A stretch of DNA of 9,444 bases from a virus (IMGVR_UViG_2648501797_000003:1-9444), one strand, 5' to 3'; numbered from the stretch's first letter, positions 1 to 9,444 are shown. The notes: a model not told the origin generated them from the sequence alone. Made by a program: numbers and translations.

Positions 1-783
1 CTAAATCATCGCAATGCCGTAATGCTGCCTGATGCGAAATGGTCGCCGGAAACTTAAAACAGAAGCGGAAGTCATCTGTGGTCTGCTCACGCCAGCGCAG
101 GACAACCTCGGGTTCTCAACCGCGCCGATAACCTGTTTCTCTTCTGCGCTTAACGCCACCCAGAATTCCTGATACTTAACAGTTCCAAGGCGTGCGGCAG
201 ACTCGCCTTTTGCGATCAGTTCCGGGCGGCGATCATCCGATTCATGCCCTACATGAACCTCTGTCGCACTCCCTTCAATGACACGTTCGGCTTCGTCCTG
301 ATCGAAGATGCCAGCAAACCCAAATGCGAGACGCGCACACTGGATCAGCGTCTTGTGACGAAGCATACGGGTAGGGTGGGACTGCCATGGCTGAGTGTTG
401 CGTTTGCACTCTCCCATGTACTCAGTAACGATGGTCGGGTGTGTGCGGTCTTTCCGGTATATCTTGCAGGTACACGCGCCTTCTTCCTTGTCGTAGGCAA
501 ACTCCATTCCATCAAACTGAGGATGTTCGTTGATGATTCGAGCCCAGCCGTCAACGCCGACTACAGGAACAATTCCACCTTTATCCGGGAATGCATAAAT
601 CTCTTTTGTCCACGGGTTCAGTCCGTACTGGTTGGCGACGATCAGCAGTGCCGTGAACTGCTCATCAGTGACATTCCCACCCTTAAATGCTGTATTTTTC
701 AGAGTGTTCATCAGGTCAGTTCCGGCATCCATGCCGAGGCGGGAGGCAAGCTTCCCGGCCATTGTAGAAAGTGCTGTGCTCAT
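1..783 (-). CDS. bet: Bet / Red-beta family single-strand annealing recombinase (260 aa)
   Basis: Translation from ATG at 783-781 (MSTALSTMAGKLASRLGMD...LLIVANQYGLNPWTKEIYAFPDK...VPVVGVDGW..RIINE..QFDGM...CTC.IYRKDR.HP...TE.M.EC.....PWQSHP.RMLRHK..IQCARLAFGFAGI.D.DEAER) is near-collinear with lambda Bet as I recall it. SD GAGGGG lies 6 nt upstream of this ATG. Stop TAG is at 3-1. The ORF-track start at 834 adds 17 residues with no homology and overlaps the upstream gene. Confidence 0.9.
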   Translation of the reverse strand: MSTALSTMAGKLASRLGMDAGTDLMNTLKNTAFKGGNVTDEQFTALLIVANQYGLNPWTKEIYAFPDKGGIVPVVGVDGWARIINEHPQFDGMEFAYDKEEGACTCKIYRKDRTHPTIVTEYMGECKRNTQPWQSHPTRMLRHKTLIQCARLAFGFAGIFDQDEAERVIEGSATEVHVGHESDDRRPELIAKGESAARLGTVKYQEFWVALSAEEKQVIGAVENPRLSCAGVSRPQMTSASVLSFRRPFRIRQHYGIAMI

Positions 784-799
784 AGAATTCCCCTCAAAG

Positions 800-1084
800 T
801 TAAAACGGGCAGCCGGTGCGGTGGTCCCAGTCATATTCCGCCTGGGCGTAAGCTACTGCCGAGATGAGATCGTTATATGCCTCGCCAGCTGCATCGCTGC
901 GGAGGCCTTCGTATGGGCTTTTGTCCATCGGCACAGAGAAGCGGAACAGGCCTGACGGCTCTTTCGGCAGGGCGTCGATAATTTCCTGCGCCCGATCGTC
1001 AATCCACTTTTGCTTCTCTTCGGTTAGCGACTGTTCAGCCCATTTCCTTTCTTCGATAGCGTCGTATGCGCGGTAGGCGTTCAT
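800..1084 (-). CDS. gam: Gam-like host-nuclease (RecBCD) inhibitor, 94 aa from ATG 1084 (GTG at 1090 also possible)
   Basis: N-terminus MNAYRAYDAIEERKWAEQ resembles lambda GamS MNAYYIQDRLEAQSWARHY; similar length (~95 aa), charged helical character, and position immediately upstream of bet as in lambda. Start sits 7 nt after the stop of the upstream gene with an SD-like GAGGUG spanning that stop. Homology is from memory. Confidence 0.6.
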   Translation of the reverse strand: MNAYRAYDAIEERKWAEQSLTEEKQKWIDDRAQEIIDALPKEPSGLFRFSVPMDKSPYEGLRSDAAGEAYNDLISAVAYAQAEYDWDHRTGCPF

Positions 1085-1091
1085 AAGCACC

Positions 1092-2063
1092 TCAGTAACT
1101 GATACCGGTATGGGGAATGCGGCCGTCTTTAACCGCTGTAAGCACCTCGATAGCCTGATCCCGAGTAAGGCTGGTATTGGCCAGAAGAGCTTTGACGATT
1201 TCAGTGCCTACAGCCTTGCGGTGCTTAACGTCGGCTTCGCGGCGAGCCTGCTCATCGGCTTTACGTTTCTCCTCAGCCAGGCGGGCCTGTTCGCGTTGCT
1301 CTGCCTCGCGGCGGATGCGATCGGCTTCTTCCTGAGCTTTGCGGCGCTCCGCTTCGATAGCGGCCTGCTTGTCAGCCTCAGCTTTCTTCTCGGCTGCAAT
1401 GCGATCTCGCTCTGCCTGCTCAGCTTGTGCTTTCAACACAGCTTCGCGATGCGCCGCTTCTTCACGTTCACGCGGTGCGCGCTGCTCAACTTCTCGGGCT
1501 GCTGCGGCGGCTGCCATTCGCTTAATTTCTTCTTCATGGGCAATGCGCTGGCGCTCAGCCTCAGCTGCTTTATCTGCCTGCTCTCGGTCGAAAGCGTCAT
1601 TCATCAGCATGGCCATTTCGTGGTCAGACTCAATCCGAGCTGCCAGCTGCCGATCGAACTCTTCATTCATGGCCAGTGCTTCGACGTGAAGGGCGTTCAT
1701 GGCTTCTTCGGCCTTAATGCGTTCCTGCTCCGCCTCCCATTCGGTCAACGGGCGACGCACTTCATCTTTCAGTGCATCGAGACGCTCACGGACAACGCGG
1801 CGGCTTTCATCAATCTGCTTTGGCAGCGCCTTCAGCTCAGCGACCAGGGCTTTACCTGCGTTGTCGATGTAGGTTTTAGAGCGCGCGACCTTGTGAGCCA
1901 TGGATGCGATAGCATCGCGGCCTTTTTTGGTGGTCACGTCCGGCACCAGACTGCGAGCCTCTTTTTCGATCGCTTCGATAAGCGGATCGAGTTGGTCGTT
2001 ATTGGTGAAAACCGCCATCGCGTTCTTTTTCTCGATGACGACTAAATCCATTATTTCGCTCAT
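1092..2063 (-). CDS. Hypothetical coiled-coil protein, 323 aa; structured N-terminal ~110 aa, then long Ala/Glu/Arg/Lys-rich low-complexity helical region
   Basis: Long ORF from ATG 2063-2061 with SD AGGGGA about 5 nt upstream; stop TGA at 1094-1092 directly abuts the gam-like start. Central region is repetitive (AEAERQRIA..., AAAAAARE..., KAQAEQAERDRIAAEKKAEADKQAAIEAERRKAQEEADRIRREAEQ). The antisense frames are open only because of this GC-rich repetitive coding. Family not recognised. Confidence 0.75.
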   Translation of the reverse strand: MSEIMDLVVIEKKNAMAVFTNNDQLDPLIEAIEKEARSLVPDVTTKKGRDAIASMAHKVARSKTYIDNAGKALVAELKALPKQIDESRRVVRERLDALKDEVRRPLTEWEAEQERIKAEEAMNALHVEALAMNEEFDRQLAARIESDHEMAMLMNDAFDREQADKAAEAERQRIAHEEEIKRMAAAAAAREVEQRAPREREEAAHREAVLKAQAEQAERDRIAAEKKAEADKQAAIEAERRKAQEEADRIRREAEQREQARLAEEKRKADEQARREADVKHRKAVGTEIVKALLANTSLTRDQAIEVLTAVKDGRIPHTGISY

Positions 2064-2312
2064 GGTTTCCCCTGAAATTTGGTTGTAAGAATCCCGGCAC
2101 CGTATTGGCTGCCTGATAGCTCAGTTAAATTCGTGCGCTGATATCCGGGTTTATATTGCCTGGGAGTCATTAATCAATCTGGCGTGGAGTGCGATTCGTG
2201 GCTAAATCCCCCGCCGAACGCAAAGCCGCGCAGGAGGTAAAGATCTGTTTGGCTGGAAGTGAGGGCGTGGTAATGTGTTTACCTATTCTTCATTTGCTTA
2301 GGTGGCGTGAAA
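2064..2312. promoter_or_regulatory. Divergent intergenic control region between the leftward recombination operon and the rightward small-ORF operon
   Basis: 249 bp non-coding between divergent gene starts (2063 minus, 2313 plus). Candidate leftward sigma70 promoter: -35 TTGATT (revcomp of 2172-2177), 16-nt spacer, -10 TATAAA (revcomp of 2150-2155). Short repeated motifs TTGSCTG (2105, 2156, 2249) and GGCGTG (2181, 2265, 2303). Promoter calls are by eye only. Confidence 0.35.
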
Positions 2313-2510
2313 ATGCTGTATACAGTGACGTTCAATGAGACAGAGCGGAAGGAAGATATTGAACTTAGCGCGGATGTCAGGGCGGGTGATTTGCTGTCAT
2401 TAACGCTCGATGGCGTGAAAGATGACTACACGGTGATGACAGTAGGCGGTCCTATCATTGGCAATACCTGTGTCCCATCAATAATCCGGGTAAAAAAAGC
2501 TCAGAAATAA
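2313..2510 (+). CDS. Hypothetical small acidic protein (65 aa from ATG 2313; ORF track starts at GTG 2307)
   Basis: ORF with SD AGGTGG (2300-2305) 7 nt upstream of ATG 2313; first gene of the rightward operon. No helix-turn-helix evident, so not obviously Cro-like. Confidence 0.5.
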   Translation: MLYTVTFNETERKEDIELSADVRAGDLLSLTLDGVKDDYTVMTVGGPIIGNTCVPSIIRVKKAQK

Positions 2511-2519
2511 TAATGTATA

Positions 2520-2546
2520 ATCCCCTCCACAGCAGAGGGGATTTTT
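2520..2546 (+). terminator. GC-rich hairpin with short U-tract (terminator-like) that sequesters the SD of the next gene
   Basis: 8-bp perfect stem ATCCCCTC / GAGGGGAT (2520-2527 with 2535-2542), 7-nt loop CACAGCA, then TTTT immediately followed by ATG 2547. The 3' arm contains the GAGGGG Shine-Dalgarno of the 2547 ORF. Confidence 0.45.
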
Positions 2547-2729
2547 ATGACAAACAAAAAAATGACACCTGCCGAAAAGCTCAAAGCTTCGCGGAAGCGG
2601 TATAAAAAAATCTGGCTTCAACTGGATATCGCTAACGCCAAGCGATTTGGCGAGAAAGAAGTGCTTTCCGTTGACACCTACAGATCGCCCTATGAAACGC
2701 GCAAGAAAAGAGGAAGGACAGCAGATTGA
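2547..2729 (+). CDS. Hypothetical small basic protein (60 aa), possibly nucleic-acid binding
   Basis: [42 protein letters not shown]...; Lys/Arg-rich; a beta-strand-then-helix pattern ([14 protein letters not shown]) is compatible with a ribbon-helix-helix fold, but this is a guess. Confidence 0.5.
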
Positions 2730-2989
2730 CAACATCATCCTGGAACATAGCAGCCAAATCGAAAGACGAGCAGGACAAAGTCAACGTTGACCTCGCCGCG
2801 TCCGGCGTCGCTTACAAAGAACGCCTGAACATGCCGGTTGTCGCCGAAGTGGTGGCCAGACAACAGCCTGAACACCTGCGGGACTACTTCATGGAGCGCG
2901 TCCGCTACTACCGCGAGCAGAGCATCCAGCTTCCCCGCGCATCCGATCCGCGCTATCTGGAAATGGCTGAGCAGAACGCCAAGAAATAG
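2726..2989 (+). CDS. Hypothetical protein (87 aa) with putative TTG start overlapping the upstream stop (TTGA)
   Basis: ORF in track; strong SD AGGAAGG (2711-2717) 8 nt upstream of TTG 2726; the first in-frame ATG (2831) has no SD. Confidence 0.45.
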
Positions 2990-3095
2990 CGATTTCCTCG
3001 CCTATGCTCATTTTGCTTTTATCCCCGGGAGGGGCGATAATTACTTAGTCAGTCTGGACAACTGACAACTTTACCCCGGCGCCAAGTGGGGACAC

Positions 3096-3563
3096 ATGGC
3101 GCAAACACTGCAATTTGAGAAAAGTTATCAAAACGTACTGATTCCCGCAGAGCCGGGAACCAGCGAATACCTGCAACTTATCCCCGTAGGGCAACTGCTT
3201 TGCGGTGAGTTCCGCAAGCCCAGGAATTACGCATTCCACAAGAAGTTCTTCAAACTTCTGACTCTCGGGTATCACTACTGGACGCCTTCCGGTGGTCTCA
3301 TTGAGCCCGCGGAGCGTACCCTCATATCCGGTTTTATCGACTTTCTCTCATCCGACCTCGATCAGCGCGCTGCACTCCAGAACGCCGCGGAGATGTATCT
3401 CTCCTCGGTCGGTATATCCCGTTCCCGCGATATGGCGCTGCTGAAACACTTCGAATCCTTCCGCGAGTGGGCAACCATTCAGGCTGGCTTTTATGACGAA
3501 TACCAGATGCCTGACGGCAGCCGTCGTCGTGTCGCAAAGTCGATCTCCTTTCTGGCTCGATGA
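3096..3563 (+). CDS. Hypothetical protein (155 aa), nin-region-like position
   Basis: ORF with ATG 3096 preceded by GTGGGGA. Sequence feels like a conserved enterobacterial prophage protein of unknown function (possibly a DUF-type family), but I cannot name it reliably. Confidence 0.6.
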   Translation: MAQTLQFEKSYQNVLIPAEPGTSEYLQLIPVGQLLCGEFRKPRNYAFHKKFFKLLTLGYHYWTPSGGLIEPAERTLISGFIDFLSSDLDQRAALQNAAEMYLSSVGISRSRDMALLKHFESFREWATIQAGFYDEYQMPDGSRRRVAKSISFLAR

Positions 3564-3650
3564 CCAGCAGGTTGACTACTACAGCGTGAAGAGAATGCCT
3601 GTCGTCAAAGGTGGGCGGCTTGAGCTAACCATTACCGAAATGGAGTCCGC

Positions 3651-3791
3651 ATGAGCCGTGACGTTATCGAACGCATCCGCGACCGCTGGCAAAAGCTTCG
3701 CCTCCTGCGTAGCCGCGGCACCGTGCTGGTCGACTACAAAATATTACGCAATTTCGTCCGTATCTATAAGCGCCTGGGAGAAGCAGCATGA
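3651..3791 (+). CDS. Hypothetical small Arg-rich protein (46 aa), below the ORF-track length cutoff
   Basis: ATG 3651 with SD GGAG (3642-3645) 5 nt upstream; translation MSRDVIERIRDRWQKLRLLRSRGTVLVDYKILRNFVRIYKRLGEAA; its stop TGA (3789-3791) overlaps ATG 3788 of the next gene (ATGA coupling). Confidence 0.35.
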   Translation: MSRDVIERIRDRWQKLRLLRSRGTVLVDYKILRNFVRIYKRLGEAA

Positions 3792-4477
3792 CAGCTCAAT
3801 ACTTGGAATTTGTTCGCCAGCAGCTGATAGTGGCCACCGCCGATCTGAGTGGTGCGACGAAAGGGCAACTGGTAGCTCTTGCAGAGAACGCGCAATTTAC
3901 CGCTACGGCGCGCAGCCGTGGCCGGAAGAAGGTGTATAGCGAGGTGAAGCAAAAAATGGTTAACCCGGATGGACCGCCGATGAGCGGCAGCCAGTCCCGC
4001 GCTAAGGGTTCCTCAATCGCTCTCGTTCTGCCCGTTGAATACTCGACAGCCAGCTGGCGTCGCGCCCTCCTGTCGCTGGAAGACCACCAGAAATCCTGGT
4101 TGCTGTGGAACTACAGCGACAATATCCGCTGGGAGCACCAGGAGACGATAACCCGCTGGGCATGGGAGCAATTCAGCGACAAGCTGGCCGGTGTGCGCAT
4201 TGCAAAGAAAACAGTCGATCGCCTCCGTCAACTTATCTGGCTGGCCGCACAGGACGTCAAAGCCGAGCTGGCAGGACGGGAGACGTATGAATACCAGTCG
4301 CTGGCGGAGCTGGTTGGTGTAGCAAAGTCCACATGGACAGAAACCTACCTCCCTCATTGGCTGGCGCTGCGCAGCAGTTTTGTGAAGCTTGATAGCGACG
4401 CTCTCATGGCGGTAACGCGATCACGTTCACAACAAAAGGCGTCAAATTTAGATGTAAGTCTTGCAAAACCGAACTGA
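3788..4477 (+). CDS. Hypothetical protein (229 aa); candidate late-gene regulator (Q-like by position only)
   Basis: ORF with SD GGGAG 7 nt upstream. It is the last early gene, immediately upstream of a promoter-terminator-tRNA arrangement like lambdoid Q-pR'-tR'. It has no cysteines, so it is not a lambda-Q-type zinc-finger protein. The functional call is inference. Confidence 0.55.
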   Translation: MTAQYLEFVRQQLIVATADLSGATKGQLVALAENAQFTATARSRGRKKVYSEVKQKMVNPDGPPMSGSQSRAKGSSIALVLPVEYSTASWRRALLSLEDHQKSWLLWNYSDNIRWEHQETITRWAWEQFSDKLAGVRIAKKTVDRLRQLIWLAAQDVKAELAGRETYEYQSLAELVGVAKSTWTETYLPHWLALRSSFVKLDSDALMAVTRSRSQQKASNLDVSLAKPN

Positions 4478-4489
4478 AAGGCATATATT
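4461..4489 (+). promoter_or_regulatory. Candidate sigma70 promoter (pR'-like late promoter)
   Basis: -35 TTGCAA (4461-4466), 17-nt spacer, -10 TATATT (4484-4489), overlapping the stop codon of the 229-aa gene; predicted start near 4496, about 50 nt upstream of the terminator hairpin. Confidence 0.35.
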
Positions 4490-4544
4490 TCATGTAAATC
4501 TGATATCGTCGCCATAGCTTCGATTGTCGACACATAAAGAATTC

Positions 4545-4578
4545 AAGCCCGAGGTTAACGCCTTGGGCTTTTTCATTT
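4545..4578 (+). terminator. Intrinsic terminator (tR'-like)
   Basis: 10-bp stem AAGCCCGAGG / CCTTGGGCTT (one G-U pair), 6-nt loop TTAACG, followed by TTTCATTT. Confidence 0.6.
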
Positions 4579-4580
4579 CA

Positions 4581-4655
4581 GGGTCAGAAGCACAGCGGTT
4601 GTGCGTTCGGCTGTTAACCGAATGGTAGAAGGTTCGAATCCTTCCTGTCCCGCCA
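4581..4655 (+). tRNA. tRNA-Asn (anticodon GUU)-like gene, 75 nt including encoded CCA
   Basis: Hand-folded cloverleaf: acceptor 4581-4587 with 4645-4651 (6 bp plus one T-T mismatch), D-stem GCAC/GTGC, anticodon stem TTCGG/CCGAA with loop CTGTTAA (anticodon GTT at 4613-4615), 5-nt variable loop, T-stem GAAGG/CCTTC with canonical T-loop TTCGAAT, discriminator G, CCA. Non-canonical A at position 8. Confidence 0.6.
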
Positions 4656-4661
4656 AATAAT

Positions 4662-4732
4662 GGCCTGACCTGATGACGGGCTCATAATCCAATCCATCAG
4701 GGGCGCTGCTGCAACAGCGTCACAGGCCGCCA
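4662..4732 (+). other. Degenerate tRNA-like remnant (possible decayed tRNA with CAU-type anticodon loop motif)
   Basis: GGCCTGA (4662-4668) pairs with ACAGGCC (4722-4728) and is followed by G-CCA. Inside are a 7-bp hairpin (4669-4675 with 4695-4701) whose loop contains CTCATAA, and a 5-bp hairpin CGCTG/CAGCG (4704-4719). No D-arm and no canonical T-loop. Confidence 0.25.
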
Positions 4733-4789
4733 GACCAAGCCTGGGTATTTTCGGTCATCACCGACATTGCTATTACCCTCATGCTTATT

Positions 4790-4818
4790 GCCTGCCTAAC
4801 CGCAGGCTTTTTTATTTT
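4790..4818 (+). terminator. Intrinsic terminator
   Basis: 6-bp stem GCCTGC / GCAGGC, 6-nt loop, followed by TTTTTTATTTT. Confidence 0.6.
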
Positions 4819-4920
4819 CAGGGTCGCGGGAATCACCCTCGACGCTTTGTTGGTAAATCAGCCCGACGGCCCTGACCTTCTCACACACAGCTTCCCGATC
4901 TTTCATCGGAGGCGGTAACT

Positions 4921-5340
4921 ATGGCTAAGCGTATGCAAGACAAAGAGAGCATTGCCGGGATGTCCTGGCTGGTTCTGCTGATCATTGCTGGTTGGGGCGG
5001 CCTTGTCCGATTCCTGATGGATGTAAAGCAGGGCAAAGCAAAATGGAGCTGGATAAATGCTTTTGCGCAGATTGTGGTTTCGGCTTTTACCGGGGTTATT
5101 GGTGGGCTCATCAGCATTGAAGGTGGCCTGAGTATTTACATGATACTGGCCACTGCCGGTGACCAGGTTAACAGCGAGCTATGGTGGGCGATTCAGAACG
5201 GTTATATGACGGTTAAAGCCGCAGGGGTTCGTGTCCGTGAAATAGAGACCGTCAGTGATGGTTATCAGTTTTTTGGCTTCGATATCGAAAATGACTATAT
5301 CGCTGGCTTCGACCGCGGGTCATGGGGAGAGAGATTTTAA
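4921..5340 (+). CDS. Holin-like small membrane protein (139 aa) with dual-start motif
   Basis: SD GGAGG (4908-4912) 8 nt upstream of ATG 4921. N-terminus M-A-K-R-M (Met1 and Met5 separated by Lys-Arg); hydrophobic helices around residues 11-33 and 43-79; charged C-terminal region. First gene after the late promoter/tRNA region, where lambdoid holins sit. Confidence 0.6.
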   Translation: MAKRMQDKESIAGMSWLVLLIIAGWGGLVRFLMDVKQGKAKWSWINAFAQIVVSAFTGVIGGLISIEGGLSIYMILATAGDQVNSELWWAIQNGYMTVKAAGVRVREIETVSDGYQFFGFDIENDYIAGFDRGSWGERF

Positions 5341-6221
5341 TGGCGACTAACGATTTTAAACCCTTCGCTACTGGTAGCGGGGCAAACGTATTATCACAAG
5401 CTGATTATGACGCACTGTCGGCCAGAACAACTGGCTTTTTAAGTGGCAAAGCGTCTTCGGCCCAGGTCAACAAAGCTTTAAGGCAGGCATCAACTATTGC
5501 GGCGGTTGTGGCGCAGTTTATTTCTGATAACAGCGGCGATGACACCCTTGATAACGGTAATTTACCTACCTTACTGGCTAGTCTCGAAAGCGCCCTCCTC
5601 AAGTCCTCCCCTGGGCGGTTACAGAATATCGTTAGCTTTACCGCAAATGGGACCTACACCCCATCGCCAGGAACCAAACATGTAAAAGTTATTGTTACTG
5701 GCGGTGGTGGCGGTGGTGGTGGTTGTCAGGGAACTTCAGGATCTGAATCAGTTTCAGGTGGCGGCGGCGGTGCTGGTGGTACGGCCATTGGTTATTTTGC
5801 TGTAACTGAATCCAGCTATGCAGTCACTGTAGGTGCTGGTGGTTCTGCTGGCGTTGGTGCTGTCCAGGGTGGAACAGGCGGAACCTCAATCATTAACGGC
5901 ATTAGCGGATTGGGCGGAGATGGTGGTCAGAAATCAGGGATCACTACGCTGGCTGGTGGGAAAGGCGGTATTTCTATTGGTGGCTCGGTTAACCTTCCCG
6001 GAGGTTACGGCACTGATGGGCAAAATGGCTCCCTGATTATCCCCGGCAATGGCGGCTCGTCATATTGGGGCGGCGGTGGTCGTGGGGGCGCACGCGGGGG
6101 CGTGGCAGGGGATTGTTATGGTGCCGGTGGTGGTGGCGCATATGATGCTGCCATGTCTGGCAACTCCTACAATGGCGGACAGGGGAAAGCAGGGATTGTA
6201 TATATTGAGGAATATTCTTAA
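5340..6221 (+). CDS. Glycine-rich protein (293 aa from ATG 5340), tail-fibre/adhesin-like
   Basis: ATG 5340 overlaps the upstream stop (TAATG) with GGGGAGAGAG upstream; the ORF-track start at 5322 lies inside the upstream gene. N-terminal ~110 aa ordinary composition (MATNDFKPFATGSGANVLSQADYDAL...), then polyglycine tracts (G8, G5, GGxGG) separated by short variable segments. Family not identified. Confidence 0.7.
   Translation: MATNDFKPFATGSGANVLSQADYDALSARTTGFLSGKASSAQVNKALRQASTIAAVVAQFISDNSGDDTLDNGNLPTLLASLESALLKSSPGRLQNIVSFTANGTYTPSPGTKHVKVIVTGGGGGGGGCQGTSGSESVSGGGGGAGGTAIGYFAVTESSYAVTVGAGGSAGVGAVQGGTGGTSIINGISGLGGDGGQKSGITTLAGGKGGISIGGSVNLPGGYGTDGQNGSLIIPGNGGSSYWGGGGRGGARGGVAGDCYGAGGGGAYDAAMSGNSYNGGQGKAGIVYIEEYS
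5700..5723 (+). repeat. In-frame trinucleotide simple-sequence repeat (GGY)8 encoding Gly8
   Basis: GGC GGT GGT GGC GGT GGT GGT GGT read directly from the sequence, within the Gly-rich CDS. Confidence 0.8.
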
Positions 6222-6391
6222 TGGTAAGCAAGTATGCAGTCCTGAAAGAATGCGTGGTAGAAAACATTATTGTTGCTGATGATAATTACTCTCCTGATGA
6301 TTTCGAAGTCGTAAAATATAGCGACGAAACATTTTGCCAGCCAGGCATGTTGTACAATAAAGAGGATGGTTTATTTTATGATGATAAATAA
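6221..6391 (+). CDS. Hypothetical small protein (56 aa), translationally coupled to the Gly-rich gene
   Basis: ATG 6221 overlaps stop TAA 6219-6221 (TAATG); translation MVSKYAVLKECVVENIIVADDNYSPDDFEVVKYSDETFCQPGMLYNKEDGLFYDDK. Below the ORF-track cutoff. Could be a short chaperone or a fragment of a tail-fibre assembly protein; unproven. Confidence 0.35.
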   Translation: MVSKYAVLKECVVENIIVADDNYSPDDFEVVKYSDETFCQPGMLYNKEDGLFYDDK

Positions 6392-6438
6392 TCATCAAGA
6401 ATAAATAACATTATCTACATATCTACACATTACCAATC

Positions 6439-6463
6439 AACCGGCTTATGCCGGTTTTTTATT
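6439..6463 (+). terminator. Strong intrinsic terminator directly abutting the start of the 694-aa gene
   Basis: 7-bp stem AACCGGC / GCCGGTT, 4-nt loop TTAT, followed by TTTTTTATT; ATG of the next gene at 6473. Confidence 0.7.
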
Positions 6464-6472
6464 GGGGCGACC

Positions 6473-8557
6473 ATGAGTGAATACGATACCGGCAATCCTG
6501 TGCCGTCTGCATCAATACCTGATGCATGGGATAATATGCAGTCTATTGACAGGTTCGCTAATAGTAGTGATGAAACTATTACCACGCGTACAGGTAAGCA
6601 GTTAGACACTCTGCATGGCATCAATGTAAAGTCTGATAACCAACTTAATGAACAACAAGATACCTTTGAATTATCTCAATCCGAAAGGGAATCCTCTTTC
6701 GAAGAAAAATCAAATGAATTTGAATCGCGCTTCTCCTCTCAGTTATCGGCGCAGGAATCAACATTTTCAGAATCTCAATCTGATAAAGAAAACCGCTTTC
6801 AGCAGTTCCTGAATACTTCAGGATACGTGTTCCTTGGCGATTATCAGGACGGCCCATTCCAGTTTAGTGCCCGTAACCAGTACATCCGTTACGGCAATGA
6901 GTATTACCGCCTGAATGCTGCTACTGACGTCGGCTTTACGACCACCGGAACCGATGCGACCAGCTTTGCGAACGACGTTACTCACTTCGTTCTGATGGAT
7001 GGTGATACGCTTCGCCAAGACCTGGGTTCAGGCGAAGGAGCAATGAAGGTTTACCGGAACGCCTCACCTCTGGCCAGAATCATTCGCTCCTCGATTTTTG
7101 AATACCTTACTGAAGCTGATCAGCAGGCGTTGCTCACAATTCCTGGCGTTAATGTTATCGCTGACTACGCGTTAAAAAAAGCTATAGCTGATGGAGTGAT
7201 GGTACTGGATATTCCGTGGAATGTCGGTGCGTTAAATTTCGGGCTTGACCCCGCAATGCTTCCATTAGGTTTTCAATTTATAGGGTGGGGTTGCCGACGC
7301 CCATATACAATTGATGACGATAACAGTTTTCTGAATTGCGGAGTCGTCATCCGCGTAGCTGCTGGTGCAAGTTTTCCATTTTATTCAACAGGCAGGCATG
7401 TATTCCGGGATATTGTTTTTGATGGCCGAGATAAAACAACGTACCTTTTTTATTCGCCAAATACTGCAACCCAGTTCAACGGCACCCGACTTGAGGGGTG
7501 TGGATTTTATCGGTTTGCGATCGGGATTGGCTGGGCTTCAGGAGGAACAGCCAGGTACATCGGAACAATGAAAGCATATTTCTGCTCAATATCCGGAAAC
7601 GGGGATGGAGTCAGGAATTTAATAGACTCCATGATGTTTGGTTGCACAATCAATGCTAATGATCGAGGAGTGGCCCTTACCGGTGGGGCAAACAATAACT
7701 TTTTTGGAGGATGCCGGAACGAATGGAACACCGGCGATAACTGGTATGCGTACCAGTCGGTGGAGAACCAGATTTTCGGCGAACTGTGCGACAGGGCCGG
7801 AAGGGGAGGTGTGGTCGCCGGGGCGAAATCCTCATGGATTTTAAACGGCGTTAACGTCCGGCGCAGTGGTGCTAATCAACCCGTGGGTAATGACTATTCC
7901 GCAAACTTTATTATTATTGATGACGGTAAAATTGAACTCTCAGGGGTAAGAACTGGTGTCGGTGCGAATGACAGCGGTGACGGAGGGACAATCTCGCCAT
8001 CCTACAACGTATCAGCTCTTGGCTCTGGCGGGGGGACCTTGCAGGTTTCCGGAAGTGACATGACTGGTTTTGTTACTTCAGCAATTAACCAGAAGGCGAC
8101 CACGTTAAATAAGTCGATAACCGGCAACCTTGGTATGGACGACGATGTAAATATTGGTATGACCCAGGTTGTTAAAGGCAGGCGAATTATTGGTTCACAG
8201 TCATCAGGTACGTTAGCAGGCTCTGCGGGCGCAACGTTATCGCTGACCAAGACCAACATATTCCAGAATTATTTCGATACATATATTACCCGTTCAATCC
8301 TAATTGAATGTCGAATTGGTAGCCAGTCATTTGGTGACGATATTAAAATTCCCGTCAGATTCAGAAGGGAGAATCTTTATTATCTGGATATCCTGACCTC
8401 GGGAATTGTTGCCAGCTCTGCACGCATTGGGCTTTCAGGGACTGGCGTAACGGTATCATTGTCCATTAACAGCTCAACCGGTCTGGTTACTGTTCAGTTG
8501 ACAAATGTTGATGGTCTGGAAAGAACCGTTAATGTATCAATGTTGCCCTCAATGTAG
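6473..8557 (+). CDS. Tail-fibre / tailspike-like protein (694 aa); probable receptor-binding protein with beta-helix-like body
   Basis: Long ORF. N-terminal acidic Ser/Glu/Phe repeats with roughly 11-residue spacing of Phe (TFELSQSERESSFEEKSNEFESRFSSQLSAQESTFSESQSDKENRF), typical of fibre coiled-coils; central and C-terminal Gly/Asn/Ser/Thr-rich stretches resembling beta-helix tailspike proteins. No specific family confirmed. Confidence 0.7.
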   Translation: MSEYDTGNPVPSASIPDAWDNMQSIDRFANSSDETITTRTGKQLDTLHGINVKSDNQLNEQQDTFELSQSERESSFEEKSNEFESRFSSQLSAQESTFSESQSDKENRFQQFLNTSGYVFLGDYQDGPFQFSARNQYIRYGNEYYRLNAATDVGFTTTGTDATSFANDVTHFVLMDGDTLRQDLGSGEGAMKVYRNASPLARIIRSSIFEYLTEADQQALLTIPGVNVIADYALKKAIADGVMVLDIPWNVGALNFGLDPAMLPLGFQFIGWGCRRPYTIDDDNSFLNCGVVIRVAAGASFPFYSTGRHVFRDIVFDGRDKTTYLFYSPNTATQFNGTRLEGCGFYRFAIGIGWASGGTARYIGTMKAYFCSISGNGDGVRNLIDSMMFGCTINANDRGVALTGGANNNFFGGCRNEWNTGDNWYAYQSVENQIFGELCDRAGRGGVVAGAKSSWILNGVNVRRSGANQPVGNDYSANFIIIDDGKIELSGVRTGVGANDSGDGGTISPSYNVSALGSGGGTLQVSGSDMTGFVTSAINQKATTLNKSITGNLGMDDDVNIGMTQVVKGRRIIGSQSSGTLAGSAGATLSLTKTNIFQNYFDTYITRSILIECRIGSQSFGDDIKIPVRFRRENLYYLDILTSGIVASSARIGLSGTGVTVSLSINSSTGLVTVQLTNVDGLERTVNVSMLPSM

Positions 8558-8565
8558 GAGTGAAA

Positions 8566-8745
8566 ATGGAAGACGAAACAGAACTGACCGAACCGCCATT
8601 TGAAACCTGGTTCAGAGACGTGGTTGAACTGGTTAAAAATGGCGGACATTCAATGGATATTGTTGCCTATAAGGGGGAATGGGTTGATTATTTTTCGGAA
8701 GGATTAACACCAGAAGATGCGTTTATAAAAAGAATGGCTCTTTAA
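8566..8745 (+). CDS. Hypothetical small acidic protein (59 aa from ATG 8566)
   Basis: SD AGGAG (8556-8560) overlaps the stop of the 694-aa gene, 5 nt upstream of ATG 8566; very acidic (MEDETELTEPPFETWFRDVVELV...). Confidence 0.5.
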   Translation: MEDETELTEPPFETWFRDVVELVKNGGHSMDIVAYKGEWVDYFSEGLTPEDAFIKRMAL

Positions 8746-8858
8746 ATAACCGACCGAAAATAAATGTCAGGGAGTAACGTATTGATAATTTTCGACAAAA
8801 CGGCAGAGCATAGTGAAAACCGCCTGTGGATGATGGCCAACATGGGGAGGATTCTGTA

Positions 8859-9176
8859 ATGGGCTTTCCATCACCCGCGACGGATTACACGGAACAGCGA
8901 TTAACGGTTAACTCGATCTGCAATGTCGGTCCAAATACGCGCCTCTTCGAGCAATCTGGCGGTTACGTTGTGCTGGATGTCTCCCTGAAACCAAAGCAGG
9001 CCAGTCAGGTTCTGATCCAGCACGGCGGCGGGACGGAGCTTGCCACGCTGAGAGGAAGGTCGCTGATTACCGAAGATGGTGAAGCGATCGAGGGCGAGGC
9101 CCTGGACGATGTTACTGTCATCGGTGTAGTGACGTTTACTATCTGCGATGTGCGCCAGGACAATGCGGTTGTTTAG
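8859..9176 (+). CDS. UmuD'-like protein lacking the N-terminal pro-peptide (HumD-like; 105 aa)
   Basis: SD GGAGG (8846-8850) 8 nt upstream of ATG 8859. N-terminus MGFPSPATDYTEQRLTVNSIC matches the UmuD segment GFPSPAADYVEQRIDLNQLL that begins at the Cys24-Gly25 self-cleavage site (13 of 20 identical by my recall). C-terminal TVIGVVTFTI resembles UmuD DVFGVVIHVV. No GDSM serine motif seen and no umuC-like ORF downstream. Confidence 0.65.
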   Translation: MGFPSPATDYTEQRLTVNSICNVGPNTRLFEQSGGYVVLDVSLKPKQASQVLIQHGGGTELATLRGRSLITEDGEAIEGEALDDVTVIGVVTFTICDVRQDNAVV

Positions 9177-9339
9177 TTGCAGTCAATTGATGGAAGATTT
9201 CGCGTGGCAGGCGTCTTGGGGCATGGGTGGGGCATGAGAAATCAGTGAATTTCGCCAAACATTGCAAACAACGTATGTTGGATGCTATCTCCAGCCATTA
9301 AAAATGGCGCTCCTGGACGATATTTGTCGATTTTTAAAT

Positions 9340-9444
9340 TTACCGCGTCACGCAGTTAAAGTGGCGGGCATACTCTTCAAGGCTGGTGATCCCCAACCGC
9401 ACCCATTTAGGATGCGACCATTGCGGTAGACCGATGTAAATCAT
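9340..9444 (-). pseudogene. 5' fragment (34 codons plus stop) of a DUF72 / YecE-like host gene, apparently interrupted
   Basis: Minus-strand translation from ATG at 9444-9442: MIYIGLPQWSHPKWVRLGITSLEEYARHFNCV then TR-stop. This matches my recollection of the E. coli YecE (DUF72) N-terminus, which should continue EGNTT...; divergence begins near 9348. Identification from memory. Confidence 0.45.

Follow-up and report, generated by a model that had tools for sequence, protein, structure and literature searches.

What kind of element carries genes for recombination, late control and receptor binding, and none for building or replicating a phage? This is the question raised by a 9,444-nucleotide stretch of viral DNA (the window, here meaning the whole stretch analysed). 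The original prediction offered two answers: a cryptic prophage remnant that kept host-beneficial or host-range cargo, or a satellite-like element that depends on a helper phage. Our analysis indicates that the window is almost certainly a dead prophage remnant, the complete remains of a temperate phage lodged in the 5′ part of the E. coli gene yecE. Judged from its sequence, the remnant is about 9.2 kb long and derives from a phage of about 43 kb by four deletions. The source phage combined lambda-like early and regulatory genes with a contractile tail.

An element enclosed by yecE

The window matches the chromosome at 100% identity in 4 of 5,426 complete E. coli genomes, where the matching stretch sits between yecN/yecE and yecD/aspS. 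A single SNP in 30 kb of flanking sequence separates the two carriers compared, and the remnant appears confined to one clone. In E. coli, prophages are known from published work to integrate in yecE (e.g. PMC5592225, PMC8112680). The features of the window are as follows.

1..114, minus strand: internal fragment of yecE, left chromosomal flank (nt 241-128 of K-12 yecE)
1..783, minus strand: chimeric bet′ ORF (PF03837 RecT family, 1.3e-27)
113..114, no strand: junction J1, yecE joined to bet; 2-bp microhomology (TT)
800..1084, minus strand: gamL, host nuclease inhibitor, intact (phrog_1050, 6.7e-44)
1092..2063, minus strand: 323-aa coiled-coil early-left-operon protein, intact (phrog_1376, 3.4e-100)
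2142..2144, no strand: junction J2; 3-bp microhomology (TAT) within an imperfect 7/8 match
2313-2510 and 2547-2729, plus strand: two small nin-region ORFs (phrog_38858, phrog_16632)
2726..2989, plus strand: phage homologue of the DNA polymerase III theta subunit (PF06440, 3.1e-35)
3096..3563, plus strand: DUF1367 (NinB-position) gene, 3′-truncated (PF07105, profile positions 3-154 of 198)
3549..3550, no strand: junction J3; 2-bp microhomology (TT)
3551..3654, plus strand: 3′ fragment of rusA, pseudogene (maps to the rusA end in FDAARGOS_433)
3651..3791, plus strand: YlcG-family small protein (phrog_2705, 5.8e-26)
3788..4477, plus strand: late antiterminator Q, intact (PF06323, 1.1e-82)
4461..4571, plus strand: late-promoter region (promoter/terminator scan, Rfam)
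4581..4655, plus strand: tRNA-Asn (GTT) (ARAGORN; Rfam tRNA, 61.4 bits)
4921..5340, plus strand: in-frame chimeric holin-DUF2612 ORF (translation; PF16083, 2.5e-17)
5160, no strand: junction J4; 1-bp overlap
5340..6221, plus strand: glycine-rich tail-fibre protein, 293 aa, intact (PF21722, 4.8e-9; phrog_863, phrog_6202)
6221..6391, plus strand: 56-aa ORF between the two fibre genes (phrog_18617, 5.6e-23)
6473..8557, plus strand: tail fibre/spike protein, 694 aa, intact (phrog_6518, 8.8e-129)
8566..8745, plus strand: 59-aa ORF (WP_025270003.1, annotated in all relatives; weak phrog_519 match)
8859..9176, plus strand: UmuD′-like protein, 105 aa (phrog_3469 'UmuD-like', 5.2e-46)
9349..9444, minus strand: first 96 nt of yecE, right chromosomal flank (100% match to K-12 yecE nt 1-96)
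9349..9369, plus strand: attR core CACGCAGTTAAAGTGGCGGGC (yecE nt 96-76)

The gene inventory of the original prediction held up well. All the genes it had listed are present (bet, gamL, Q, the tRNA-Asn, the holin, two fibre genes and the UmuD′-like gene), and genes for capsid, packaging, tail tube, endolysin, replication or immunity, which it had declared missing, were absent from the window by Pfam, PHROGs and annotation. The mosaic base composition noticed by eye is also real, with a GC fraction of 0.605 at 1201-1600 against 0.375 at 6201-6600.

The boundaries required a correction. The window had been described as running from bet to a probable chromosomal junction; the junction on the right is there, where yecE adjoins yecD, but the left end is chromosomal too, matching at 100% both K-12 yecE and the yecE of lysogens. 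Both ends are therefore host DNA, and the entire element, rather than its right part alone, lies within the window. In the PGAP annotation, the left flank has a DUF72 protein shortened to 225 aa, with its start at window position 100. As to exo, xis, int and attL, which had been suggested as things to look for further left, all are gone; at its left edge the window is in yecE already.

Intact relatives and four deletion junctions

Full-length, collinear prophages occupy the same site in ST361 (NZ_CP103704.1) and KFu024 (NZ_CP091659.1). They share with the window the attachment site (yecE nt 76-96), the gene order and identical fibre, Q, GamL and UmuD′-like proteins, and they carry int/xis, immunity, replication, lysis, terminase, head, contractile tail and baseplate genes. 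The ST361 prophage measures about 42.5 kb from att core to att core. Two att cores flank the intact prophages, whereas the window has one copy, attR; attL falls inside deletion J1. The host flanks are also close to those of the window strain, with 12 SNPs in 26 kb for ST361 and 2 SNPs in 6 kb for KFu024. All segments of the window are collinear with these relatives and mostly 99.4-100% identical to them (97.8% to KFu024 over 2137-2985), so that the decay looks recent. The same gene order is found in a free phage, the isolated Klebsiella phage Mulock (MN098327.1), which runs baseplate, fibres, int, xis, exo, bet, gam, coiled-coil gene, repressor, replication and nin, and shows about 90% DNA identity to the window in the gam/coiled-coil region.

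No single sequenced prophage fits as the exact parent: ST361 has another bet allele and another module at window 2234-2743, and KFu024 has another ninB-Q-holin region. We therefore reconstructed the parent from three mosaic relatives, ST361, KFu024 and FDAARGOS_433. The undeleted counterparts of J1 and J2 are in KFu024, that of J3 is in FDAARGOS_433 and that of J4 is in ST361. Compared with the full-length prophages, the window lacks about 34.5 kb, distributed over four precisely mapped deletions.

J1 accounts for 4,198 bp of a KFu024-type parent and took yecE nt 97-127, the attL core, int, xis, a TraR-like gene, a methylase, exo and the last 76 nt of bet. Because it removes 31 nt of yecE proper, it is not the product of a site-specific excision. 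In the resulting bet′, codons 1-223 (window 115-783) encode a protein identical to KFu024 Bet, and the last 25 codons of the 248-aa parent Bet are replaced by 37 codons of yecE read out of frame. J2 accounts for 7,793 bp of a KFu024-type parent, comprising small early genes, a LexA-family cI repressor, cro, cII, ren, DUF551 genes and both replication genes (O/P). The 896 bp missing at J3 held the 3′ end of the DUF1367 gene, a small ORF, ybcO (DUF1364) and the 5′ part of rusA; the DUF1367 product is now 155 aa versus 198 aa in the parent (a 597-nt gene in FDAARGOS_433), and PGAP labels the rusA fragment 'missing N-terminus'. J4 is the largest, 21,647 bp of an ST361-type parent, with the 3′ end of the holin, endolysin, spanin-region, terminase, portal, head and neck genes, and also sheath, tube, tape measure and baseplate genes. 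It fuses holin residues 1-80 (to window 5160; LydA-type, with the PF16083 match on residues 18-80 only) to the last 59 codons of a DUF2612 baseplate-wedge gene (5161-5340), which PGAP records as two partial pseudogenes. The genes at the junctions are chimeric or truncated (bet′, DUF1367′, ′rusA and holin′-′DUF2612). By eye, these four genes look whole.

GamL has the same accession (WP_016529276.1) in the window and the intact prophages, and the 323-aa coiled-coil gene shows 99.4% DNA identity to ST361 and KFu024. The proteins of the two small nin-region ORFs (WP_025269967.1 and WP_025269966.1) are also found in KFu024 and FDAARGOS_433. Q (WP_025269999.1) is identical in the intact ST361 prophage. 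Behind it, the promoter scan predicts a sigma-70-like promoter at 4461-4489, followed by an isrJ-family short RNA at 4493-4571 (Rfam RF01393, 57.1 bits, where the gathering score is 37) that is closed by an intrinsic terminator at 4545-4570. The 293-aa fibre (WP_025270001.1) is identical in intact prophages and the 694-aa fibre (WP_140414703.1) in ST361; the latter matches PDB 7xy1, 'phage type I tail fiber', at 3.7e-46. The last phage gene before attR encodes the UmuD′-like protein, which matches UmuD′ (1umu) at 5e-4 over its first ~42 residues only. It aligns with UmuD residues 25-66 and starts at Gly25, the post-cleavage end, with Val at the position of the catalytic Ser60. It gave no Pfam match at E <= 0.01, and no LexA box was found near the gene. 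These features suggest that the 105-aa protein is probably a homologue of UmuD′ and that peptidase activity is unlikely.

Taken together, the attachment site with host sequence on both sides and one att core, the collinearity with full-length prophages from which the window can be derived by deletion, and the loss of lytic-cycle modules with genes truncated at the breakpoints support the cryptic prophage reading. In the model that we propose, four separate illegitimate deletions, at the level of microhomology, would have cut about 34.5 kb from a prophage of about 43 kb: i) the J1 event would have removed attL together with some of yecE and the genes from integrase to exonuclease, ii) the J2 event immunity and replication, iii) the J3 event part of the nin region and iv) the J4 event the whole stretch between the middle of the holin gene and the end of the baseplate genes. 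The remnant would now be inherited vertically as chromosomal DNA. Some of the four deletions may have arisen in a common event; among the matches listed, there was no intermediate that carried a subset of them.

Predicted fate and competing explanations

What can such a remnant still do? From its gene content, we predict that it is unable to excise, having lost attL, int and xis, and that replication, cell lysis, particle assembly and specific packaging are likewise beyond it. The pL/pR control region was part of the deleted DNA, so that gam, bet′ and the coiled-coil gene, which belong to the early genes, are probably silent and the fibre genes probably no longer undergo Q-dependent late expression. 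Expression may persist only in self-contained units, namely the tRNA-Asn, the short leader RNA of isrJ type and perhaps the UmuD′-like gene next to attR. It is very unlikely that the stretch beginning at Q and including the late promoter, the fibres and the UmuD′-like gene is still a working late operon which, on superinfection by a related contractile-tailed phage, might supply fibres in trans or by recombination and so alter its host range. If this were true, the remnant would be a functional reservoir of receptor-binding proteins and not inert DNA.

A related idea, contained in the original prediction, is that the surviving genes were kept by selection for host benefit, the candidates being the fibres, the UmuD′-like protein, the theta homologue, the tRNA-Asn and Gam/Bet. 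Defective prophages are known to become domesticated, the remnant has intact fibre genes and an intact UmuD′-like gene, Q, gam and tRNA, and an independent deletion in FDAARGOS_433-type relatives also ends in DUF2612 and spares the same right-end block. However, the right end would be expected to survive in any case, because deletions extending beyond attR soon reach the essential gene aspS, which starts about 870 bp past the end of the window. Moreover, exo has been lost and bet damaged, the early promoters went with the deletions, and the remnant is carried by one clone only. Its right-arm proteins have accessions identical to those of intact prophages, and the divergence in DNA is too small for selection to be visible. 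A search of the window for defence systems gave no match. We consider this explanation highly improbable, as nothing points to selection for the cargo; the retained cargo is simply whatever lay between the breakpoints.

There is practically no chance that the window is a helper-dependent satellite that brings its own receptor-binding proteins and takes capsid, tail and packaging from a helper, although compactness, intact fibre genes and Q, a late-promoter region and the lack of virion genes would all suit such an element. A satellite brings along an integrase of its own, both att sites, a replication module and packaging or helper-hijacking functions, and is met repeatedly as a conserved unit. 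P4-like elements, PICIs, capsid-forming PICIs and PLEs resemble the remnant in being small and without most virion genes, but none of the integrase, paired att sites, replication and hijacking functions typical of them was found in it. Only attR survives. Integrase and excisionase are missing, as are a replication initiator, a primase and any origin-carrying gene (the theta homologue is the sole replication-related gene), and there is no annotated terminase gene, the terminase and surrounding packaging region being inside J4. Pfam and PHROGs searches found no satellite hallmark families and no match to small terminase or helper-redirecting families, a kind of search to which a bare cos or pac site is invisible. 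Nor is a recurrent compact unit seen across lineages, the element being present in 4 of 5,426 complete genomes, and its boundaries cut through genes and through host yecE. Clear deletion scars, which the original prediction had named in its own terms of refutation, are present, and the satellite part of that prediction was rejected. A tailocin or domesticated tail particle can be dismissed, as only the fibres and a 59-codon baseplate-wedge piece are left, the holin is cut short and an endolysin is missing.

Comparison with known systems

The dead prophage remnant in yecE is of an already known kind, an ordinary defective prophage. Two genes of its phage family can be likened, by description, to those of bacteriophage P1, in which HumD is a UmuD′ homologue and Hot a theta homologue: as in P1, there is a short UmuD′-form protein that starts at the UmuD cleavage site, and, like P1 Hot, a homologue of the DNA polymerase III theta subunit. 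The closest parallels for the element as a whole are Rac, DLP12, Qin and e14, the cryptic lambdoid prophage remnants of E. coli K-12. These and the remnant described here are chromosomally fixed leftovers of temperate phages at attachment sites, shaped by internal deletions and without virion and replication modules; common to them are scattered early genes, a Q-type antiterminator with fragments of lysis genes, and tail-fibre genes. There are also differences. Rac, DLP12 and e14 still retain integrase and attL, both of which have been lost here. Unlike the K-12 remnants, this one comes from a phage with a contractile-tail module (PBSX-type terminase and sheath, tube and baseplate J in intact relatives). 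Finally, it is much younger than they are, being near-identical to intact copies in sister strains.

An intact prophage at the same site in yecE

What the window contains is a prophage remnant of the ordinary kind: about 9.2 kb long, recently decayed and marked by four mapped deletion scars. Comparison with K-12 revealed that window positions 1-114 correspond to yecE nt 241-128 and positions 9349-9444 to yecE nt 96-1; therefore, host DNA is present at each end and the entire element lies inside the window. The yecE gene is a documented integration site of E. coli prophages, and in strain B18271 the window is located between yecN/yecE and yecD/aspS. Four of 5,426 complete E. coli genomes (B18271, 23CRST022, 38I23CPO002 and 22F46) match the window at 100% identity in their chromosomes, and none of the others contains it.

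Listing of the ORFs, a search for tRNAs and scans against protein families confirmed the inventory of recombination, late-control and fibre genes proposed in the original prediction. The mosaic base composition perceived there by eye is also real, with GC content going from 0.605 (1201-1600) down to 0.375 (6201-6600).

Features of the window
Left, minus strand: bet, RecT family (PF03837, 1.3e-27)
Left, minus strand: gamL (phrog_1050)
1092-2063, minus strand: coiled-coil early gene, 323 aa, Ala/Glu/Arg-rich (phrog_1376)
Plus strand: two small ORFs (ORF listing)
2726-2989, plus strand: DNA polymerase III theta subunit homologue (PF06440, 3e-35)
Plus strand: DUF1367 gene, in the ninB position (family scan)
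Plus strand, just upstream of Q: YlcG-family gene
Plus strand: antiterminator Q (PF06323, 1.1e-82)
4581-4655, plus strand: tRNA-Asn(GTT) (tRNA search)
Plus strand: LydA-type holin (PF16083)
Plus strand: glycine-rich tail-fibre protein (PF21722; phrog_863/6202)
Plus strand: 694-aa tail fibre (phrog_6518; PDB 7xy1, 3.7e-46)
8859-9176, plus strand: UmuD'-like protein, 105 aa (phrog_3469, 5e-46)

E. coli strains ST361 (NZ_CP103704.1) and KFu024 (NZ_CP091659.1) contain a full-length prophage at exactly the same yecE site. From left to right, it comprises yecE', int, xis, methylases, exo, bet, gamL and the coiled-coil gene; repressor, cro, cII, two replication genes, the nin region, Q, tRNA, holin and endolysin; a PBSX-type terminase, portal, head, sheath and tube, tape measure, baseplate J and the baseplate-wedge gene DUF2612; and finally the two fibre genes and the UmuD'-like gene of the window, attR, 'yecE and yecD. 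The isolated Klebsiella phage Mulock displays the same gene order around its attP, and the 323-aa coiled-coil protein is conserved beside gam across the phage family, Mulock included. A 21-bp att core, CACGCAGTTAAAGTGGCGGGC (yecE nt 76-96), is found on both sides of the ST361 and KFu024 prophages, the two copies being 42.5 kb apart in ST361; the window has only the right-hand copy (9349-9369).

BLAST comparison of the window with ST361, KFu024 and a third strain, FDAARGOS_433, produced collinear blocks, mostly 99.4-100% identical (97.8% for window 2137-2985 against KFu024), interrupted by four breakpoints. Because each of these relatives matches some segments only, a single exact parent was rejected and the parent was reconstructed as a mosaic. 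The original prediction left the choice between a cryptic prophage remnant and a satellite-like element; collinear intact relatives at yecE and the deletion scars bear out the remnant.

Four deletions and their consequences

Deletion junctions in the remnant, left to right
J1, 113/114: microhomology TT; 4,198 bp removed (reference KFu024); lost: yecE nt 97-127, attL core, int, xis, further early genes, exo, last 76 nt of bet
J2, 2142-2144: microhomology TAT; 7,793 bp removed (reference KFu024); lost: repressor, cro, cII, both replication genes, ren
J3, 3549/3550: microhomology TT; 896 bp removed (reference FDAARGOS_433); lost: DUF1367 3' end, ybcO, rusA 5' end
J4, 5160: microhomology 1 bp; 21,647 bp removed (reference ST361); lost: holin 3' end to within DUF2612, including endolysin, terminase and all head, tail and baseplate genes

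At J1, bet retains 223 of its 248 codons followed by 37 out-of-frame codons from yecE, giving a chimeric ORF (bet'); J3 shortens the DUF1367 gene to 155 of 198 aa and leaves only the last 104 nt of rusA; and J4 joins holin residues 1-80, with the reading frame preserved, to the final 59 codons of DUF2612. Deletion mediated by IS elements or long repeats was rejected. The overlaps of just 1-3 bp and the absence of IS ends at the junctions point instead to illegitimate recombination, and J1 is not a site-specific event because host sequence beyond attL was also removed. In carrier strains, yecE nt 97-127 are deleted and the gene is permanently damaged; the annotated 225-aa DUF72 protein (L001 19423-20100) begins within the phage/yecE junction and overlaps bet' in another frame.

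Between the window strain and ST361, the chromosomal flanks show 12 SNPs in 26 kb; between the window strain and another carrier of the remnant, they show 1 SNP in 30 kb. This indicates that the remnant arose within a lineage whose near kin keep the whole phage. Judging from the match ranking, no intermediates with some but not all deletions appeared among the matches listed, and these matches support the confinement of J1, J2 and J4 to the four carriers, J3 alone being indistinguishable in unlisted records. In FDAARGOS_433 (NZ_CP023899.1, 13588-14657 and 30975-31133) and many similar strains, the same prophage at yecE has decayed in another way: the segment that begins with bet and takes in the replication genes is missing, and a second deletion extends from the neck-terminator gene to a point within DUF2612. 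Thus, the same phage has been dismantled independently in other lineages.

Having lost attL, int and xis, the remnant is predicted to be unable to excise, and the lack of yecE nt 97-127 would in any case prevent an empty site from being restored. Loss of the repressor/cro region and replication genes leaves it without early promoters and replication functions, and loss of the terminase region removes the terminase gene and the surrounding packaging region. Given this architecture, gam, bet' and the coiled-coil gene are unlikely to be expressed, and the normal promoter probably no longer drives Q; transcription would then not extend through the late region as far as the fibre genes. As self-contained units, tRNA-Asn and a short isrJ-family RNA (4493-4571) may still be active.

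A 2,971-bp ISEcp1-blaCTX-M-15-wbuC' unit interrupts the remnant in one of its four carriers, a human rectal isolate from Ottawa (NZ_CM148361.1, 18735-21715). The unit is inserted at window 3735-3739, within the YlcG gene that immediately precedes Q, and has a 5-bp target duplication (TACAA). The remnant is the chromosomal landing site of ISEcp1-blaCTX-M-15 in one clinical isolate.

Selected cargo, satellite or defence island

Has the right end been kept by selection, as the suggestion of host-beneficial or host-range cargo implied? The independent FDAARGOS_433-type deletion also ends within DUF2612 and spares the same block, but this sparing amounts to only two events. Moreover, the right arm (5161-9348) and its counterpart in ST361 do not differ, so that too few changes have accrued to reveal purifying selection, and the right end is protected by its position because aspS, an essential gene, starts around 870 bp beyond the window's end. 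The cargo gloss was therefore not borne out. The same arm is present at at least 99% identity in 61/5,426 genomes and belongs to longer prophages in the relatives examined.

The satellite-like reading was rejected: the window has no integrase, second att core, replication module, packaging or helper-redirecting gene, family scans of the window found no satellite hallmark families, the unit is not recurrent (four of 5,426 complete genomes) and its edges cut through genes. A defence island was rejected, since a PADLOC scan of ten proteins gave zero matches.

Defective prophage remnant, rather than satellite or island, is the appropriate label for the region, whose significance beyond correct annotation is small. 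It is nonetheless a clean example of rapid prophage dismantling, in which four microhomology-level deletions, one of which also cost the host part of its yecE gene, separate it from close relatives that still have the intact phage.

Retained genes and RNA compared with known phages

The UmuD'-like protein begins at the residue equivalent to UmuD Gly25, that is, as the post-cleavage form, and has Val at the position of the catalytic Ser60, so that its designation in RefSeq as an S24/S26 family peptidase probably holds in name only. Neither a umuC-like partner nor a LexA box was found near the gene (8859-9176). SOS control was rejected, because a LexA-box search of the window allowing one mismatch gave 5 matches versus 2.4 expected and none near 8750-8860. 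Together with the theta homologue, this gene recalls hot and humD of phage P1.

Directly downstream of Q, an isrJ-family sRNA (4493-4571, plus strand; Rfam 57 bits, gathering score 37) is preceded by a sigma-70-like promoter (4461-4489), ends in an intrinsic terminator (4545-4570) and is followed by tRNA-Asn. IsrJ itself is an sRNA of the Gifsy-1 prophage. The promoter-RNA-terminator layout after Q is reminiscent of lambdoid phages, whose late leader is likewise short and terminated, and the isrJ-family RNA looks like the corresponding late-leader transcript of this phage family.
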